Notes: a model not told the origin generated them from the letters alone. A stretch of DNA of 64,000 bases from a virus (IMGVR_UViG_3300026518_000007:4253-68252); one strand, 5' to 3'; shown: positions 2,336-52,374, counted from the first letter of the stretch. A program made the numbers and translations.

Positions 2336-2884
2336 ATGAATATGTGGGCCTACACTTTTAGTAAAATGAATGATGAGGATGAAGTTAAAGGGAGCTTAAG
2401 ATTACAGATACCTGATGTAAATTTCTTTTTACAATATATAGATAAAGCTAGTATCATGGATGTACTTACATTTAACGTATACGGTAAAAAGAGCGTAATA
2501 GAACTATATAATACTATAGTTAATAACGCTGAATCTAGACATGCGCAAATCGCTTTTAGACATGAACATGAGACTAAGCTCTTAAAAGATGATTTAAGAA
2601 AGCTTGAAGAGGAGTTAGAAAATTCTTTAGACTCGGTAAAAGCTGAAGAAGAAAAACGGGATGAGATGCGGGATATTGTTTTAAGCAAAGTAGATACTAT
2701 AGATGCCTTAACTGCTAAGTTAGAAGATGCTAATGAAATGATTAAAAAACTAACTGCTGAGAATTCCGAACTTAAAAAGAAGTTAAAAGATAATTCTAAA
2801 GTAGTTACTAAAAAAACTGTTAAAGTAAAACCCAGCAAGTTTAATACTACAACTGTACCGTCTAAGAGTACCGCTAAAATATAA
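2336..2884 (+). CDS. coiled-coil protein (N-terminal part of a possibly longer HTH protein)
   Basis: Heptad-rich E/K segment; AAGGA RBS; ends at a TAA followed in frame by an HTH. Confidence 0.75.
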   Translation: MNMWAYTFSKMNDEDEVKGSLRLQIPDVNFFLQYIDKASIMDVLTFNVYGKKSVIELYNTIVNNAESRHAQIAFRHEHETKLLKDDLRKLEEELENSLDSVKAEEEKRDEMRDIVLSKVDTIDALTAKLEDANEMIKKLTAENSELKKKLKDNSKVVTKKTVKVKPSKFNTTTVPSKSTAKI

Positions 2885-3061
2885 ACTAAAAAGATAGGTG
2901 TTAGAAAATTAAGTAATAGAGAAGTATTAGCTATACGTAAAGAATTAAATAAAGATAAGCTTAAACGTATGAGTAGAAAAGATTTAGCATCTAAATATAA
3001 AATATCACTAGGTACGCTATCTAGAATAGCTAATAGAGTTACCTATAAGAATGTTAAATAA
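2885..3061 (+). pseudogene. in-frame HTH domain after a single TAA (readthrough or nonsense-disrupted C-terminus)
   Basis: Same frame as 2336-2884: TKKIGVRKLSNREVLAIRKELNKDKLKRMSRKDLASKYKISLGTLSRIANRVTYKNVK*; no RBS or start of its own. Confidence 0.7.
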
Positions 3062-3084
3062 TTATTTCTAAATTATTTTATAGA

Positions 3085-3099
3085 TATATTATTAATATG
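3085..3099 (+). promoter_or_regulatory. phage early promoter motif
   Basis: TATATTATTAATATG; resembles the phiKZ early consensus TATATTAC. Confidence 0.65.
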
Positions 3100-3323
3100 A
3101 GATAATACATCTCCTAAGTTTAGATATACTTAGTAACGTGTTCCAATGCGTATTAAAAAATCTACCTCCTCAGTTATGTTTAACTGGATTTTGATACTAC
3201 CTCACTGTTATAGGAACTTATGCGACGGCTAAGTAACCTATAGCAACATGTACGACAAAGCATGTCGTATAATATTCTACCGATATATATTAAAATATAA
3301 ATATGTCGGTAGTTTTTTTTTTT
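3100..3323 (+). ncRNA. candidate small RNA with anti-SD motifs
   Basis: No ORF; bounded by the promoter motif and a hairpin plus 11 T; five hairpins; ACCTCCT at 3164-3170; CTACCTC twice. Confidence 0.5.
3277..3323 (+). terminator. intrinsic terminator
   Basis: CTACCGA...TCGGTAG stem followed by T11. Confidence 0.75.
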
Positions 3324-3324
3324 C

Positions 3325-3374
3325 TATATCTAAGGTATATCTACTTTGGTAGGTATACTTCAGATATTTTTTTT
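3325..3374 (+). terminator. second tandem hairpin plus T-tract
   Basis: ATATCT/AGATAT, GGTATA/TATACT and TCTAC/GTAGG stems then a T-run, just before the next RBS. Confidence 0.5.
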
Positions 3375-3391
3375 TAATAAGGACATGAGTT

Positions 3392-4177
3392 ATGGGAATT
3401 AACGTAAGTGTAACTGGAAGTAGGTCTATTAAAGACAGGGCTATGGTGTTTAAAATTTTGAATACTATTAATGATATGTATACTATATCTAAAATAATAC
3501 ATGGAGGAGCATCCGGAGTAGATACTATAGCTAATGAATATGGTATTAATAAGAATATACCTATTAAAATTATTAAACCTGATTGGGATACATATGGTAA
3601 AAGTGCAGGTATGATTAGGAATAATGATATAGTTAAAATAGGTGATTTAGTATTAGCTATATATGACGGTAGTAGTAAAGGAACGCTGAATGCTATAACT
3701 ACAGCTATTCGTATTAAGAAAAATATAATGACATTTGATAATGAAGGTAAACTTAATAATAAATATTGTAGGAATATAAGAGATTTAAATTACGAGTATG
3801 AATGGAAAAGAGTAGTTAAAAGAGGAGAACCTTATTTCGAGTGTAGTAGTAGAGGTAATAAACACTATAGCGCTTTATATGCTAAAATAGATAATAAATC
3901 TATAGAGGAGATATATCAGTTAGATATTAAAGGATATAGAGGTAAAGTTGACCATTGGACTAAAGCTAAAGGTAAACCTACGTTAAATGATAATGAAGAT
4001 ACACTATATGAAGAGTATATTAAACTATGGCAAACATATTTTAAAAAACATGATGATTTATATATGAATATATTAGAGAAAGCTAAAGGTAAAATTATAA
4101 CAGATATGTTCGGGGTTAGACCTATTAATCAAGCTAGGGCTATATGCGACTTATGTAATAATGGATACATATATTAG
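3392..4177 (+). CDS. SLOG (YspA/DprA-like) domain fused to a NADAR-like domain
   Basis: N-term VTGSR, IIHGGASGVD, GMIRN, GSSKGT (SLOG); C-term ECSSRGNKHYSALYA..IEEIYQ..KG..LWQ (NADAR-like, from memory). Confidence 0.7.
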   Translation: MGINVSVTGSRSIKDRAMVFKILNTINDMYTISKIIHGGASGVDTIANEYGINKNIPIKIIKPDWDTYGKSAGMIRNNDIVKIGDLVLAIYDGSSKGTLNAITTAIRIKKNIMTFDNEGKLNNKYCRNIRDLNYEYEWKRVVKRGEPYFECSSRGNKHYSALYAKIDNKSIEEIYQLDIKGYRGKVDHWTKAKGKPTLNDNEDTLYEEYIKLWQTYFKKHDDLYMNILEKAKGKIITDMFGVRPINQARAICDLCNNGYIY

Positions 4178-4440: not shown

Positions 4441-4456
4441 TATATTATTAAAATAG
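4441..4456 (+). promoter_or_regulatory. early promoter motif (variant)
   Basis: TATATTATTAAAATAG directly after a terminator. Confidence 0.5.
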
Positions 4457-4498
4457 ATACTAAGGTAGTATCAATAATTCGCCAAGGAGGAAAAAATA

Positions 4499-4726
4499 AT
4501 GCGAAACAGATTTAGTGATAAAAGAAGTTACAATAGTAAGAAATTAATTGTATTCTTTTTATTGGAATTAATAGCAGTAGTGTTACTAGGAACTATACTA
4601 ATATATTTCGTACCTAAATGGTTATTAGTTATAATATGTATTACATTACTAATAAAACCATACGAACGTTTCATTATGAAGCTAGATGAAGCTAGAATTA
4701 AAGGAGATAGAAATGGCGTTATGTAA
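4499..4726 (+). CDS. small membrane protein (2 TM, holin-like topology)
   Basis: AAGGAGG RBS; basic N-term and two hydrophobic stretches. Confidence 0.65.
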   Translation: MRNRFSDKRSYNSKKLIVFFLLELIAVVLLGTILIYFVPKWLLVIICITLLIKPYERFIMKLDEARIKGDRNGVM

Positions 4727-13203: not shown

Positions 13204-13408
13204 GCGCTCACTGCCATCTAGAGTACCTGTGAGGTGTATTCGTCCCATGACATAGCTTGTAGCTTATATCACTGGTCCTTGGAAAGGGACTGGTGATATA
13301 AGTAGTAGCGATACAAGTATCAATTCCAGCAGTTACTGGAACAGTGGGGGAAACGGGGGCAGGGTTTAAATACCTTATGGGTGGTGGTTGGGCGCTGGTG
13401 GTGAGCGT
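13204..13408 (+). ncRNA. candidate structured non-coding RNA, unknown class
   Basis: 49% GC island; 13-bp closing helix 13204-16/13396-408 with 3 G-U; 18-bp stem 13263-13302 capped by a GGAA tetraloop; no ORF. Confidence 0.55.
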
Positions 13409-13847: not shown

Positions 13848-14876
13848 ATGAGTGATAGAAGTAATTTACATTTGATAGCATGCGGTGGTGCTGGTATAAA
13901 TATAGTTAGTGATATATATGGTAAGTTAAGTGGATTGGGTAAATCATACGCTAATGTTAGTGTTAGGAGTATAGATACTACCATTAAAACCATACAGGCG
14001 CATCCTATGTTAGGGGATACTTTTACTAGGATAGTGTCTTCTAAGTTATCTGGTAACGGGTTAGATGGTAGTGGTGGCGAAAGAGCTAACATGGACATCA
14101 TAGATGAGATACAGGGTTCTGTTAAAGAGTTCATGGATGTAGGGTTGTCTAATGAGAAGAACGATTATTACGTGATAGTTACTAGTGCTAGTGGTGGTTC
14201 TGGTAACCATATAGCTGCTGCATTATTAAAAAATATGTTGGCATTGGATTATAACGTTATAGTGGCTGCGGTTGGTGATGGTAGCAATGAGTTAACTCTT
14301 AATAATACTGTTAAAACATTAGCTACGTTTTATAAGGTGGCTGTAAAAGCTGGTGCTGCGTTGCCTGTTATATTTTATAATAATACATATAACGGTATGA
14401 CTACGTTAAGTACTGAACAAGGTGTTAATGATAAGATAGCTAAGATGTTAACCATCATATCAGCATTCATATCCGGTAGTGTGCAGAACATAGATAACCA
14501 GGACATGATAAACTTTTTTAAGCCTACCAACTATAGAACTTTTAAGATAGAACCAGGTATGTATAGTTTAGGTATCGCTAGAGGAGAGCTTAATGATGAG
14601 AATACGTTATTAGTAAGAACTCTTGTTAAAGAGGTAGCTGATGATGTTAAGATGTCTATAGTTCCTAGACATAACAAAACAGGTATAGTTAAAGGGGATA
14701 TGGCTGATGATTTTGATATCTATCCTATATATCTATTATATAGAAAACAGGTCATGAATGATGAGATGAGAAGACTTAAACAAGAGTTGGAGAGCATCAA
14801 ACGACAACATGAGACCGAGTCTAATGAGTTCGATGAGTTCGATGATATGGAAGATGATGATGGCATGGTATTGTAG
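13848..14876 (+). CDS. phuZ: PhuZ phage tubulin
   Basis: LIACGGAGINI, SASGGSG, IDNQD T7 loop; acidic C-tail DDDGMVL like the 201phi2-1 PhuZ tail. Confidence 0.95.
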   Translation: MSDRSNLHLIACGGAGINIVSDIYGKLSGLGKSYANVSVRSIDTTIKTIQAHPMLGDTFTRIVSSKLSGNGLDGSGGERANMDIIDEIQGSVKEFMDVGLSNEKNDYYVIVTSASGGSGNHIAAALLKNMLALDYNVIVAAVGDGSNELTLNNTVKTLATFYKVAVKAGAALPVIFYNNTYNGMTTLSTEQGVNDKIAKMLTIISAFISGSVQNIDNQDMINFFKPTNYRTFKIEPGMYSLGIARGELNDENTLLVRTLVKEVADDVKMSIVPRHNKTGIVKGDMADDFDIYPIYLLYRKQVMNDEMRRLKQELESIKRQHETESNEFDEFDDMEDDDGMVL

Positions 14877-42591: not shown

Positions 42592-44025
42592 ATGCCAGTT
42601 ATACAGAATATAATAAGTCTAGATGATTTACACTCTAGAGTAGAGAAGAAGATAATGCTAAATGATTTAAAGTTAGAGGAGAGCGGCATCAAGGATTTAA
42701 TATACTCTACCTATGATGACGAGATATCATTGATACCCCAGTGCTCATGCGGTCATTATGCTAAAGGTTACTTATTAGACCGGATATGTCCTGTATGCGG
42801 TACGCCTGTTGTAGATATGTCATCTTCTATAGACCCTATCTTATGGGTTAGAAAGTTTGATGATGAGTTACCTTTTGTTAATCCTAAATTCTGGGTTGAT
42901 TTAACTAAACTTATTAATACTAAAGTAGACAGTCTACGTTGGCTATCAGATAGTAGTTATAATCCTCCTAAAGTACCTCCTGTTTTACATAATATAAAAG
43001 AACTTATAGGAGGTAGGGAATATATCAATGTTATTAATAATTTAGAGAAAATCATCATCTATCTTAAACATAACAGTCAGTTCAAAGCTTTTAATAAGCA
43101 GATGAAACTTGAGAAATTACATAAGTATTTCATTAAGAAGAAAGATGATATATTTTCTACTAATCTACCTCTTATTAATAAGAAACTGTTCGTAGTTGAA
43201 AATACTAATAAAGGTAATTATACTAACCTACTATTAGCAGATATCATAGATTTAGCACTACTAGCTATAACTACTAACACTGATGTCAATGCTACTAAGA
43301 AAAAGTTAGGTAGGAATACAGCTAAACTTATATCATTATCTGCTAATCTTTATGTGGATTATGTTAAGAACTTTGTTAGTAAGAAAGGAGGATTATCTAG
43401 AAAGAATATATTCGGTACTAGAGCACACTTCACATTTAGAACAGTTATCTCAACATTACGTTCTGAATTTGAATATGATACTATACATGTACCATGGGAT
43501 ATAGGACTAACTACTTTTAGACCACATGTGCTAAATAAACTTTATGCATTAGGTTATAATCATAAAGATGCTAGTGCGTTAGTGTATGAATCTACATTTA
43601 ACTATAACGAAGTTATAGATAAAATTTTACAGGAACTCATAGATGAATCTCCGTATAAAGGAATACCTGTTCTAGCTAATAGAAATCCTAGTTTGGGTGT
43701 AGGTAGTATAGTTAAAGTTTTTATAACTAGATTTAAGACTAATGTACATGACCATACTACAGGTTTTCCATTACCGCTGATGCCATCGTTAAACGCAGAT
43801 GTGGATGGAGATGAATTAAACTTTACAGTATTAACGGACAATATGCTAGCAGAGTTGGCTGAGGCATTTAACCCATTTAGAAATGTACCAGAGTTGGATA
43901 TATACAAAATAAGTGGTAACCTTAATATAGCTAAAACTTCTATATTAACACTTATGTCTTACTTGGATACTAATGAAGAAGCTGAGGATGAAGAAGACTT
44001 AGTTTATGACATGTTAACTATGTGA
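42592..44025 (+). CDS. non-virion RNA polymerase beta-prime N-terminal subunit (phiKZ gp55-like)
   Basis: Zn finger CSCG..CPVC, KKGG..RKNIFGTRAHFTFR, NRNPSL, catalytic NADVDGD. Confidence 0.9.
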   Translation: MPVIQNIISLDDLHSRVEKKIMLNDLKLEESGIKDLIYSTYDDEISLIPQCSCGHYAKGYLLDRICPVCGTPVVDMSSSIDPILWVRKFDDELPFVNPKFWVDLTKLINTKVDSLRWLSDSSYNPPKVPPVLHNIKELIGGREYINVINNLEKIIIYLKHNSQFKAFNKQMKLEKLHKYFIKKKDDIFSTNLPLINKKLFVVENTNKGNYTNLLLADIIDLALLAITTNTDVNATKKKLGRNTAKLISLSANLYVDYVKNFVSKKGGLSRKNIFGTRAHFTFRTVISTLRSEFEYDTIHVPWDIGLTTFRPHVLNKLYALGYNHKDASALVYESTFNYNEVIDKILQELIDESPYKGIPVLANRNPSLGVGSIVKVFITRFKTNVHDHTTGFPLPLMPSLNADVDGDELNFTVLTDNMLAELAEAFNPFRNVPELDIYKISGNLNIAKTSILTLMSYLDTNEEAEDEEDLVYDMLTM

Positions 44026-50260: not shown

Positions 50261-50515
50261 TATATTATTAATATGTGCACATGTTCTTTTTAATATATAA
50301 ATATATTTTTTATACATATATATTACTATTGAACAAATAAATAAAAAACATCTTTTAGCGAAGATGTTAGGTTATAGTATACAGACAAAGATATACTATT
50401 ATTTGAATAAACTATTAAAGTTAATAACTAACCCTAATAAGGTTAGTTAGTATATACTCTAGTATAGTAGTAACTTTTTAATTCGAAAATAATTTAAAGA
50501 GATATTACTAATATG
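50261..50515 (+). promoter_or_regulatory. three stacked early promoter motifs upstream of chimallin
   Basis: TATATTATTAATATG at 50261, TATATTAC at 50319, GATATTACTAATATG at 50501. Confidence 0.7.
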
Positions 50516-50562: not shown

Positions 50563-52374
50563 ATGGCAATTCAAAGAGGAATTAAAACAGGCGTAGAAAC
50601 AGAAGTAAATGTAGAACAAGCAACTGCAGCACAAAACAATTTAGAAGATATGTTCGTAGATGACCAACGTACAGATAACGGTGAGCAGTTTCAAGATTTG
50701 ATTAGTCTTGATAGTATCCTTATCTCTGATAAAGCGGATGGTGAAGTTTTAGAAGATGCGGGTAAAGCATTTTTGAAAGGTATCGAGTCTAAAAAGATTG
50801 ATGTTAAAATAGCAACTATTAATAAAGATGCATATGACTTAGGTTATTCATTCGTACTTATGTATTATAAAGGAAGTAATGGTAAGGTTTACTACTTCAT
50901 GTCACTACTTGAAGCTACAGGTCGTGCGCCAGTTACAGTTAAACAAATCATTGCAGAAATGAACATTAAAAACAGTATTGCTATCCTTGTAACATCTGAT
51001 GCATTTAATGATTATCTATATGAGCAAATTGAAAAGACTCTTAGAAAAGAGTTCAATGATGCACCACTTGTATCTTTAGAGGGCGTAGTTATCCCTACTG
51101 ATGCTAACATTGAGACAACATGCGAAATCATTGCTAAATATGGCCATGACCTTATCGCTCTTAAAGAGCTAGTTGAAACTGGTAAGGCTAGAGATATCAC
51201 TGCTGCTGATATTCGTAAAGTAACTTCAAACTCAAATCTTACACTTGATGTAATCATGAACACTGGTCTTACTATCAATAAGTTAGGTAGAACGGTTCGT
51301 ACAGATTTCAATGTTGAAACTAACGTAGTCCGTAATGGTAATGTTCGTGATTTTCACGGAACTAACTCTAGAAAAATGCTTGCTACAACTGCTGGTTATT
51401 TAGAGTATATCATTTCTGAAGATGTTATTCCATATACACAACAAATCAAACGTACAGCAAAACCAATGATTATACTTAATGAGTTCTTAGGTAAAGCTCC
51501 AACTATGGGTTATACTTTACTATCTCTTATCAATGCTGCAACATTCACTAACAGACAACAACTAAGTGCTCTTATCATTGAGAAAGATGCTGGCCCACTT
51601 AACTACTTGTTTAACTATAAAGGTGATGGTGCTGGTTTTGGAGATAAGCTATCTTTTAAAGACCCTAAAGCTAAACCTGAAATCATCAATGATATCATTC
51701 GTACGCATATCAGCTCTTCTCCTATCTTCGCAGTTGAAGTTGAATTATATGGTGCAAGTTATTCATATATGACTCCGTTCGTAGGTTTAAGTATTCCAAG
51801 TGCTACACAACGTGCTACTAATGATATCTTATCTGCTGCAGAACGTTTAGTCGGAAGTAAGTTTGAAACTAACGCAGTTGCAGCTAATGAAGGTTTCTTA
51901 GTACCTATTGGTAACTATGTAGATGCTGATGGTAATACAAGAGATATTCGTGAAATCGATACAACATTTATCGCTAAGTATACTAATGAACCAGCGTTGA
52001 TTTTTGAATGGATTTTCTCTAACTTACCATCTCACATTTGTGAAAGTCATACTGGTAAACAACCTTATATTCTTAAATTAGAAGTGATTGATAAAATTGC
52101 TACTATTCTTAACTTACAGGTTACTATTACTGGTAAAGCGGTACGTGTTCCACTACATGGTAGATTTGTAGAAGAGTTAGTACAAAAAGCTATGGCTGCT
52201 GGTTATGCTCCAAGTACTGAAGGTAATCCAATCGGTTATAACGATTTCAATAACTTACAATTTGTAGCGCAAGCATACAACGGTGCTTCTGTATCTAATA
52301 CAGGTTTCGCAGCACAGCAAATGGGTAGCGCAGGTTTCATGGGTAATTTCAATAACATGAAATATCGCGGTTAA
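50563..52374 (+). CDS. chmA: chimallin, phage nuclear shell protein
   Basis: GRTVRTDF, LVPIGNYVDADGNTRDIREID and VTITGKAVRV...RFVEEL align by eye to 201phi2-1 gp105; G/N/F-rich C-tail; high-expression codons. Confidence 0.88.
   Translation: MAIQRGIKTGVETEVNVEQATAAQNNLEDMFVDDQRTDNGEQFQDLISLDSILISDKADGEVLEDAGKAFLKGIESKKIDVKIATINKDAYDLGYSFVLMYYKGSNGKVYYFMSLLEATGRAPVTVKQIIAEMNIKNSIAILVTSDAFNDYLYEQIEKTLRKEFNDAPLVSLEGVVIPTDANIETTCEIIAKYGHDLIALKELVETGKARDITAADIRKVTSNSNLTLDVIMNTGLTINKLGRTVRTDFNVETNVVRNGNVRDFHGTNSRKMLATTAGYLEYIISEDVIPYTQQIKRTAKPMIILNEFLGKAPTMGYTLLSLINAATFTNRQQLSALIIEKDAGPLNYLFNYKGDGAGFGDKLSFKDPKAKPEIINDIIRTHISSSPIFAVEVELYGASYSYMTPFVGLSIPSATQRATNDILSAAERLVGSKFETNAVAANEGFLVPIGNYVDADGNTRDIREIDTTFIAKYTNEPALIFEWIFSNLPSHICESHTGKQPYILKLEVIDKIATILNLQVTITGKAVRVPLHGRFVEELVQKAMAAGYAPSTEGNPIGYNDFNNLQFVAQAYNGASVSNTGFAAQQMGSAGFMGNFNNMKYRG

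Follow-up and report, generated by a model that had tools for sequence, protein, structure and literature searches.

What lies between a perfect phage promoter and a strong terminator when the roughly 220 nucleotides (nt) that separate them hold no conserved protein-coding gene? The question is raised by positions 3100–3323 of a 64,000-nt stretch of viral DNA (IMGVR_UViG_3300026518_000007:4253-68252; hereafter the window), which is part of a 99,325-nt IMG/VR virus record, 36% complete by estimate, of a phiKZ-like jumbo phage. Judging from sequence, predicted fold and conservation, we consider it likely that 3100–3323 is a real gene for an early, structured non-coding RNA, which very probably represents a new family within an already known kind of system, the small RNAs (sRNAs) of jumbo phages. 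How such an RNA would act is a more tentative matter, and our best full explanation, plausible to us at somewhat less than even chances, is that it serves as an antisense regulator of the phage's own early messages by pairing with a hairpin at their 5' ends. Plain coordinates below refer to the window, G000 to the 99-kb record of this phage, L005 and L006 to further contigs of the same phage, and L034 and L008 to a diverged relative.

Promoter, fold and terminator of the RNA unit

A preliminary description of this DNA had proposed a self-contained unit running from an early-type promoter to a terminator and giving a structured non-coding RNA with exposed C-rich motifs, and this much is supported by our analysis. 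The perfect promoter motif that it placed at 3085–3099, directly before the 224-nt region, is a copy of a recurring motif (TATATTAYTAATATG) that occurs in perfect form (TATATTATTAATATG) three times in the window (3085–3099, 37626 and 50261). With up to two mismatches allowed, 21 matches were found against 7.2 expected (~3-fold), a count reached by none of 100 shuffles. Across the whole record, + strand copies mostly lie 30–90 nt 5' of a ribosome-binding site (RBS) and ATG, and the same motif precedes the genes for the nuclear shell protein chimallin (50563) and the tubulin PhuZ (13848) as well as the operon of an ATPase and the beta subunit of RNA polymerase (RNAP; 41513). In phiKZ, 28–32 early promoters have a common conserved AT-rich element (PMC8244752). 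We infer that the present motif is of the early class because it is shared by genes that are early in phiKZ (PMC8244752), so that, by analogy with that phage, the unit begins as an early phiKZ-like transcription unit should, with an AT-rich promoter motif common to known early genes. Transcription would start near 3100. The elements of the unit, with the evidence for each in brackets, are as follows.

3063–3099, + strand: early-type phage promoter, core TATATTATTAATATG at 3085–3099 with a T-rich upstream part (motif enrichment, conservation)
3100–3323, + strand: predicted non-coding transcript of ~215–224 nt (fold, no conserved open reading frame)
3110–3133, + strand: UCUCCU motif and 5' hairpin A, stem CTAAGT/ACTTAG, 3114–3119 with 3128–3133 (predicted fold, invariant stem)
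3136–3151, + strand: possible small hairpin ACGUG/UGCGU at the site of a variable domain (by eye; outside the predicted fold)
3162–3170, + strand: CUACCUCCU, resembling an anti-Shine-Dalgarno (anti-SD) sequence, not conserved (probability of being unpaired 0.86; CAACCAUAUAC in the relative)
3171–3186, + strand: hairpin B, CAGUUA, loop UGUU, UAACUG, 3171–3176 with 3181–3186 (invariant in the relative)
3187–3205, + strand: single-stranded linker with UUGAUACUACCU(C), a candidate seed (conserved, predicted open)
3206–3245, + strand: hairpin C, TGTTATAGG/CCTATAGCA with inner ACTTA/TAAGT and apex UAUGCGACGGCUA at 3219–3231 (fold, covariation)
3249–3271, + strand: hairpin D, TACGACA/TGTCGTA (fold)
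3277–3323, + strand: intrinsic terminator T1, 12-bp stem 3277–3288 with 3301–3312, then U11 at 3313–3323 (sequence, fold)

The minimum-free-energy fold of 3100–3323 reaches -57.2 kcal/mol (z = -5.28; none of 200 shuffles as good), and the minus strand folds worse (z = -3.54). All four hairpins reported in the preliminary description are present in this fold at their positions, together with the terminator hairpin. The terminator, too, was correctly placed: a stable 12-bp hairpin is followed directly by T11, as expected of an intrinsic terminator, and the phage RNAPs would presumably stop there.

With regard to coding content, the absence of any open reading frame (ORF) claimed earlier holds only in the sense that none is conserved. 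Two short ORFs exist, of 28 amino acids (aa; 3146–3232) and 34 aa (3248–3352), of which the second passes through T1; neither has a Shine-Dalgarno (SD) sequence or is common to the relative, and both were rejected as a coding explanation of the region.

Database searches gave no relative of known kind. Rfam 15, searched with the whole window at gathering thresholds, returned no family match, including C4, 6S, riboswitches, leaders and group I introns, and in a permissive search with the region and its counterpart in the relative the best sub-threshold scores stayed at or below 22.6 bits against thresholds of 40–115. A blastn search of the region against 50,697 phage records found no match, and no second copy was found in the 99 kb of this phage, where the element is single-copy. 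Scans of IMG/VR by flanking proteins (SLOG, coiled-coil, PhuZ and HAD) and by four DNA patterns yielded either nothing or three chance matches in coding DNA, and a pattern scan of JGI metagenomes yielded 13 matches, all unrelated, mostly in GC-rich DNA and attributable to chance. A group I intron or a TnpB guide RNA was also considered and rejected, given the lack of a family match, the unit's own promoter and terminator and the lack of an adjoining TnpB.

Conservation and covariation in a diverged relative

The gene downstream of the unit encodes a SLOG domain protein, which in a protein database is identical on three further contigs; the RNA region in three contigs of the same phage is identical except for T10 against T11. 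A SLOG homologue with 75% identity on a 34-kb vent contig marks the diverged relative (L008/L034), whose flanking proteins are 59–75% identical to those of this phage and whose third codon positions are 57–69% identical.

Conservation between the two phages is uneven along the unit. The promoter part is 87.5% identical over 80 nt, and the promoter together with the first 45 nt, which include UCUCCUAAGU and hairpin A, is ~87% identical. Within hairpin A the stem and UCUCCUAAGU are invariant while the loop differs. Near 3136–3151 the relative carries a ~190-nt insertion (L008:3586-3760) closed by a 9-bp stem and containing three hairpins, of which two are direct-repeat copies of a GC-rich element of ~47 nt (period 68 nt); no homologue of this insertion was found in the 99 kb of this phage, including its GC-rich RNA candidate at 13204–13408. 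Hairpin B and the linker form a 33-nt block that is identical in the relative apart from a 1-nt deletion at the start of the linker, and all seven pairs of hairpin B are unvaried. Since a 1-nt indel shifts every reading frame, this block is not coding. With the two ORFs unconserved and an indel in an otherwise identical block, a short translated peptide, which the preliminary description had named as a possible undoing of its proposal, does not explain the region.

The 3' hairpins vary in another way. In hairpin C, 8 of 16 pairs (6 of 9 in the lower stem) are changed on both sides, all still pair, and the apex UAUGCGACGGCUA is exact. At the place of hairpin D the relative has a hairpin of unrelated sequence. 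Terminator T1 covaries, and some of its G-U pairs would be C-A mismatches on the opposite strand. The relative's version of the whole RNA is 412 nt long and also folds well (z = -4.79).

When a covariance model (R1) was built from the sequence of this phage only, it detected the relative at 52 bits (E = 1e-10), with all four 3' hairpins aligned. In the resulting alignment 98.8% of cells pair and 13 of 44 pairs are changed on both sides, compared with 0–2 in a control in which the partners were slid by 1–3 columns, and six G-U cells favour the + strand as the RNA. The region has no conserved reading frame, and its pairing is kept by compensatory change, as seen in two sequences and a model-fitted alignment. 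This pattern is what a functional RNA looks like, unlike neutral intergenic DNA or a protein gene. The best explanation of it is that selection acts on the hairpin scaffold, the 5' end with UCUCCUAAGU, hairpin B with the open linker UUUUGAUACUACCUC, and the apex of hairpin C.

C-rich segments and leader hairpins as candidate targets

The C-rich motifs of the preliminary description were all found between the hairpins (TCTCCT at 3110, ACCTCCT at 3164, and CTACCTC at 3162 and 3197). The words CCTC and CTCC occur five times in the region against 0.37 expected at the genome's + strand rate (~13-fold), and at least five such words were present in 11 of 1983 windows of 224 nt (0.55%). The motifs are mostly unpaired by prediction (mean probabilities 0.57, 0.86 and 0.85), and the C-rich segments are predicted to be open in the RNAs of both phages. 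The linker sequence UUGAUACUACCUC is identical in the two phages with its UACCU core unpaired in both, as would be expected of an exposed, conserved seed. That the RNA acts by base pairing through these segments seems to us close to an even proposition, though slightly on the doubtful side.

In both genomes the best complements of the conserved C-rich strings are leader hairpins and not RBSs. The leader is a 17-nt hairpin, GAUACU(A/U)AGGUAGUAUC, that is GAUACU(A/U)-AGG-UAGUAUC with an AGG loop (the family may also be written as GAUACUNAGGUAGUAUC), and in both phages a subset of small early genes has it where their mRNAs presumably begin. Three copies occur in 99 kb of this phage and three in 20 kb of the relative. 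As a DNA cassette, GATACT(A/T)AGGTAGTATC recurs in both phages right after an early-type promoter, in front of small early genes whose content varies. The cassettes, and the perfect 11–12-nt complements of the linker within them, are located as follows.

4441–4472: promoter and leader cassette, leader hairpin 4456–4472, linker complement 4463–4474
4441–4498, + strand: candidate target that begins with this cassette, comprising the same type of promoter, the hairpin GAUACUA-AGG-UAGUAUC (4456–4472) and AAGGAGG, ahead of the ATG at 4499
G000:C1:82322-82353: promoter and leader cassette, leader hairpin 82337–82353, linker complement 82344–82355
G000:C1:1790-1823: promoter and leader cassette, leader hairpin 1807–1823, linker complement 1814–1824
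L034:4759-4790, L034:11190-11225 and L034:16510-16546: promoter and leader cassettes of the relative

The linker complement covers the loop and 3' arm of the leader and two further bases. With the leader as the given target, the 12-nt match was equalled by 2 of 2000 dinucleotide shuffles of the RNA; the duplex of the RNA with the 4456 leader has a predicted energy of -17.7 kcal/mol, which 4 of 300 shuffles reach. When gene starts were ranked by cofold energy gain, the three leader-headed genes stood 5th, 6th and 11th of 97, the 5th being the gene downstream of the 4456 leader. In addition, CCUAAGU of hairpin A complements ACUUAGG of the T-type leader hairpin over 7 nt.

The relative's RNA has three separate segments of at least 10 nt complementary to the leader, which none of 2000 shuffles matched. 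Two of the three lie in sequence that the phages do not share, one in the insertion and one in the 5' arm of hairpin C, which is changed there; the linker and this arm together can span the entire leader. Two of the relative's three leaders give duplexes of -18 to -20 kcal/mol (reached by 0–5 of 300 shuffles), and the third, at -17.4 kcal/mol, is indistinguishable from shuffles (53 of 300 as good). Every anti-leader segment contains CCU, the complement of the loop, and none has AGG instead.

Under the anti-leader explanation, the RNA would be transcribed from the consensus early-type promoter, stop at the strong intrinsic terminator and fold into five hairpins (A, B, C, D and the terminator), possibly with one more small hairpin at the variable site that separates A from B. 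It would work in trans through its exposed CCU-containing segments, preferring as partners the phage's own early mRNAs headed by the GAUACU(A/U)AGGUAGUAUC hairpin; the linker would mirror the SD-like AGG loop and 3' arm of the leader, and CCUAAGU(AU) its 5' arm. Binding would open or mask the 5' leader and might thereby affect how well these early messages are translated or how stable they are. This is the most specific and most testable mechanism that we can offer for the RNA; that the leader hairpins in particular are its targets is a possibility we would put at roughly one in three or a little lower.

Several points weigh against it and call for caution. Only one diverged relative turned up in the collections searched, so the covariation that underpins the RNA itself draws on a single pair of sequences and on a model-fitted alignment of them. 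The choice of the leader as target came after the match had been noticed; across the genome, a match of 12 nt is nothing unusual for this composition, since 457 of 500 shuffles have one as good somewhere, and the leader copies are repeats, so their cofold ranks are not independent. There is no cross-covariation between linker and leader, because both are invariant between the two phages, and complementarity is hard to tell from sequence kinship because the leader is near-palindromic. The anti-leader segments could also be relics of recombined promoter-hairpin cassettes, and one segment of the relative pairs mainly with bases that are probably 5' of the transcription start. Finally, a 16-nt perfect complement of positions 3102–3117 of the RNA lies inside ORF G000:1854-2201, on a leader-headed mRNA (shuffle p ~0.05), but the relative's homologue (L034:16882-17229), itself in a leader-headed operon, lacks it; given this loss, the site was discounted as a second target and taken as chance or lineage-specific. 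When RNAduplex was run over the whole genome with no limit on length, it returned only long duplexes without meaning.

The leader-headed gene G000:1854-2201 and its homologue L034:16882-17229 are an example of a gene that stands behind such a cassette in both phages.

Alternative explanations

The main rival, which we regard as unlikely but by no means negligible, concerns the gene that follows the unit, for which two features are relevant.

3326–3375, + strand: hairpin H2 (18 bp) followed by U9, directly 5' of the SLOG RBS at 3379–3383 (z = -3.85, terminator-like)
3392–4177, + strand: gene for a YspA-type SLOG domain protein, with no early promoter of its own (PF10686, E = 1.6e-12)

According to this rival the region is the 5' leader of the SLOG operon: the promoter at 3085 would serve SLOG, the structured RNA would be its 5' untranslated region, and the short RNA would be a by-product, or a regulated product, of premature termination at T1 and H2. 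How far transcription reads through would then determine expression, in the manner of attenuation or of a leader resembling a riboswitch. In line with this rival, the stretch from T1 to the ATG at 3392 contains no early-type promoter, the order RNA, H2, SLOG is the same in the relative, and H2 with its U9 is almost invariant directly before the RBS (~86% identity over 79 nt, above that of third codon positions). H2 might serve as a second terminator in tandem with T1, or it might form the 5' hairpin of the SLOG mRNA; it has CTAAGGTA in common with the leader hairpins. There is also precedent in phage 201phi2-1, where ONT-cappable-seq identified 11 sRNAs, three intergenic and eight that arise by premature termination in 5' untranslated regions (PMC11512511), and the layout seen there, of a promoter, a terminator and a gene in the same orientation with no promoter between, is found here from 3085 to 3392. 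On the other hand, read-through would have to pass two strong tandem stops, T1 (12 bp and U11) and then H2 (18 bp and U9), and a by-eye comparison of the two phages found no conserved antiterminator pairing. No riboswitch or leader family matched. More distant SLOG homologues on six other contigs (47–57% identity) start 0–85 nt behind their upstream gene, with no comparable gap, and model R1 finds no copy at any of these six loci. Nor does the rival conflict with a trans-acting role of the short RNA, since a leader that ends at a terminator can itself work in trans.

It is also possible, though improbable in our view, that the RNA binds a protein. It might titrate an RNA-binding protein or a nuclease, of host or phage, as a decoy or sponge, the sponging of an RNA-binding regulator being an alternative that the preliminary description had also named, or it might be an anti-defence RNA mimic; the invariant hairpin B with the linker and the apex of hairpin C would then be the recognition sites. 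Hairpin B and the apical loop of hairpin C are invariant and have no convincing RNA target in either phage; specifically, a search of both phages for complements of the apex (GCCGUCGC) found no conserved phage target. The locus lies among early accessory genes (nuclease, HAD and SLOG), and the relative has gained two copies of an extra hairpin, as would befit sponges, which often multiply their sites. These repeated hairpins are, however, absent from this phage, no partner can be named, and the RNA has no likeness to any Rfam family, known decoy RNAs included.

The preliminary description had favoured a general anti-SD RNA, which would pair with AGGAGG-type RBSs of the host, silence host translation and spare the phage's AAGGA sites. 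We consider this a poor prospect, slightly less probable still than protein binding. ACCUCCU is the anti-SD core of the 16S rRNA 3' end, the C-rich words of the region are strongly enriched and exposed, and the earlier statement that the phage's RBSs are mostly of the shorter type is borne out, with AAGGA in 71 of 97 gene starts and GGAGG in only 4. The copy of ACCUCCU at 3164 is, however, the sole motif truly equal to that core; the relative reads CAACCAUAUAC there, and its 412-nt RNA has just two CCUC or CUCC words. Paired and non-conserved CCUCC motifs would, by the earlier account, have spoken against its proposal: in the event ACCUCCU is lost in the relative, while the motifs are unpaired and UCUCCU (3110) and CUACCUC (3197) persist, lying within the longer invariant strings CCUAAGU and UUUUGAUACUACCUC. 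These conserved motifs have just 5 nt in common with the anti-SD, and conservation reaches well past them, so that a generic five-base SD target leaves the frozen string UUUUGAUACUACCUC unexplained. Anti-SD pairing in the form first proposed is thus not upheld, its one exact motif failing conservation and the conserved motifs best matching phage leader hairpins that are not RBSs.

That there is no functional RNA at all, and that the region consists of DNA palindromes and terminators from recombined promoter-hairpin cassettes of the PeSL kind, conserved by the closeness of the phages alone, is very improbable: promoter-hairpin cassettes do recur beside variable early genes and fragments of them are present in the region, but pairing is maintained by compensatory changes in a changing sequence, the + strand is favoured by its G-U pairs and better fold, the identical blocks are far above neutral identity, and the unit is unchanged in contigs whose upstream gene has different disruptions.

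The phage and the neighbourhood of the locus

The phage is a very AT-rich, distant and uncultured member of the nucleus-forming (phiKZ-like) jumbo phages from a deep-sea vent, an assignment that follows from its protein matches. Among phiKZ-type jumbo phages, 288 have a match to its 940-aa virion protein (~23% identity), and matches to PHROGs place three further hallmark genes in the window.

13848–14876: tubulin PhuZ
42592–44025: RNAP beta subunit
50563–52374: nuclear shell protein (chimallin)

The G+C content of the window is 24–35%, and the contigs of this phage and of related phages originate from hydrothermal-vent metagenomes.

Other observations concern the surroundings of the locus and further sites of the same promoter type. 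Upstream of the unit (2336–3061), a coiled-coil gene and, behind an in-frame TAA (2882–2884), a helix-turn-helix part correspond to one 275-aa ORF in the relative (L008:2660-3487). This gene is broken by the TAA here and in L005; L006:2939-3509 reads GAA instead, but a change from A7 to A8 in the run at 2810–2816 shifts its frame. An IS200/IS605-type pair (a TnpB-like OrfB and a Y1 transposase) lies in the relative's early accessory region at L034:17556-19219 and is absent at the corresponding place of this phage. Elsewhere in the window, the perfect promoter at 50261–50275 is followed by ~200 nt without an ORF and with several hairpins (z = -3.31 for 50261–50500), ending just before the promoter copy at 50501 that serves chimallin; this may be a second stand-alone early RNA. 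Outside the window, at G000:C1:90108-90170 (85856 onward in window coordinates), a near-perfect promoter is followed by unusually G+C-rich sequence with no RBS, and this may be a further RNA gene.

Comparison with known systems

In its proposed mechanism the RNA is closest to the c4 antisense RNA of P1 and P7, in which two short exposed segments face two adjacent sites in the leader of phage mRNAs and thereby shut off their expression. The c4 RNA is ~77 nt long, belongs to temperate phages, is processed from the transcript of its own target and serves immunity; sar of P22 and OOP of lambda are looser analogues of this kind of antisense. The present RNA differs from c4 in that it has no Rfam match, is ~215 nt long, comes from a jumbo phage of lytic type and has several dispersed early mRNAs as its putative targets.

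A likeness to RNAIII and RsaE/RoxS of Bacillota lies in the several unpaired C-rich motifs able to pair with G-rich SD regions. Those RNAs present repeated UCCC or CCCC in loops to the true RBSs of many host mRNAs, whereas here two of three motifs are conserved, they read CCU(C), their best partner is a 5' hairpin with an AGG loop and not an RBS, and there is no homology.

RegB of T4 is an endoribonuclease that recognises the SD-like GGAG motif in early phage mRNAs. The parallel is one of function only, that of an early product inactivating a subset of early phage mRNAs through such a motif; unlike RegB, a protein nuclease, the recognising agent here would be RNA, with the recognised motif in the loop of a 5' hairpin. 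By this analogy one may picture an early-regulon switch, in which one abundant sRNA pairs in two parts with the AGG-loop hairpin of early accessory-gene mRNAs and, on accumulation, turns them off or stabilises them, as an RNA counterpart of RegB. We offer this switch as a whole, two-part pairing included, as speculation with perhaps one chance in four.

To our knowledge, sRNAs have been mapped in a few cultured phiKZ-like phages, with no function or target known for any. Those of the Chimalliviridae (PMC11512511) belong to the same phage group, share the arrangement of a promoter, soon a terminator, and a structured RNA of <250 nt ahead of a co-oriented gene, and are likewise conserved in structure between related phages. 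They are transcript-mapped, in contrast to the vent-phage RNA, which is predicted and likened to them by description and not by sequence (PMC11512511). One of them, sRNA005 of 201phi2-1, corresponds to the phiKZ sRNA upstream of gp182 (PMC11512511) and lies before a tail gene; the vent-phage RNA differs in lying in the early accessory region behind an early-type promoter. It differs further from the group in its complementarity to a recurrent leader.

We know of no RNA complementary to PeSL, which the candidate target cassettes of our phages resemble. In T4-type phages these cassettes consist of a conserved early promoter and a stem-loop before variable early genes in plastic regions (PMC2839356, PMC4122927). 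The RNA of 3100–3323 itself, unlike PeSL, which are described as recombination or regulatory DNA cassettes, is single-copy and far longer.

Implications for jumbo-phage biology

The case is a clean one: at a single locus of an uncultured vent lineage with very AT-rich DNA, a consensus early promoter, a strong terminator and structure kept by compensatory change come together with a concrete hypothesis about targets. If the anti-leader hypothesis fails, the region would still yield a new family of structured RNAs, along with a covariance model with which jumbo phages can be annotated. If it is true, the small RNA and its leader would form a pair usable as an orthogonal regulatory module, and they would show post-transcriptional timing of early genes in a phage that brings its own transcription machinery.

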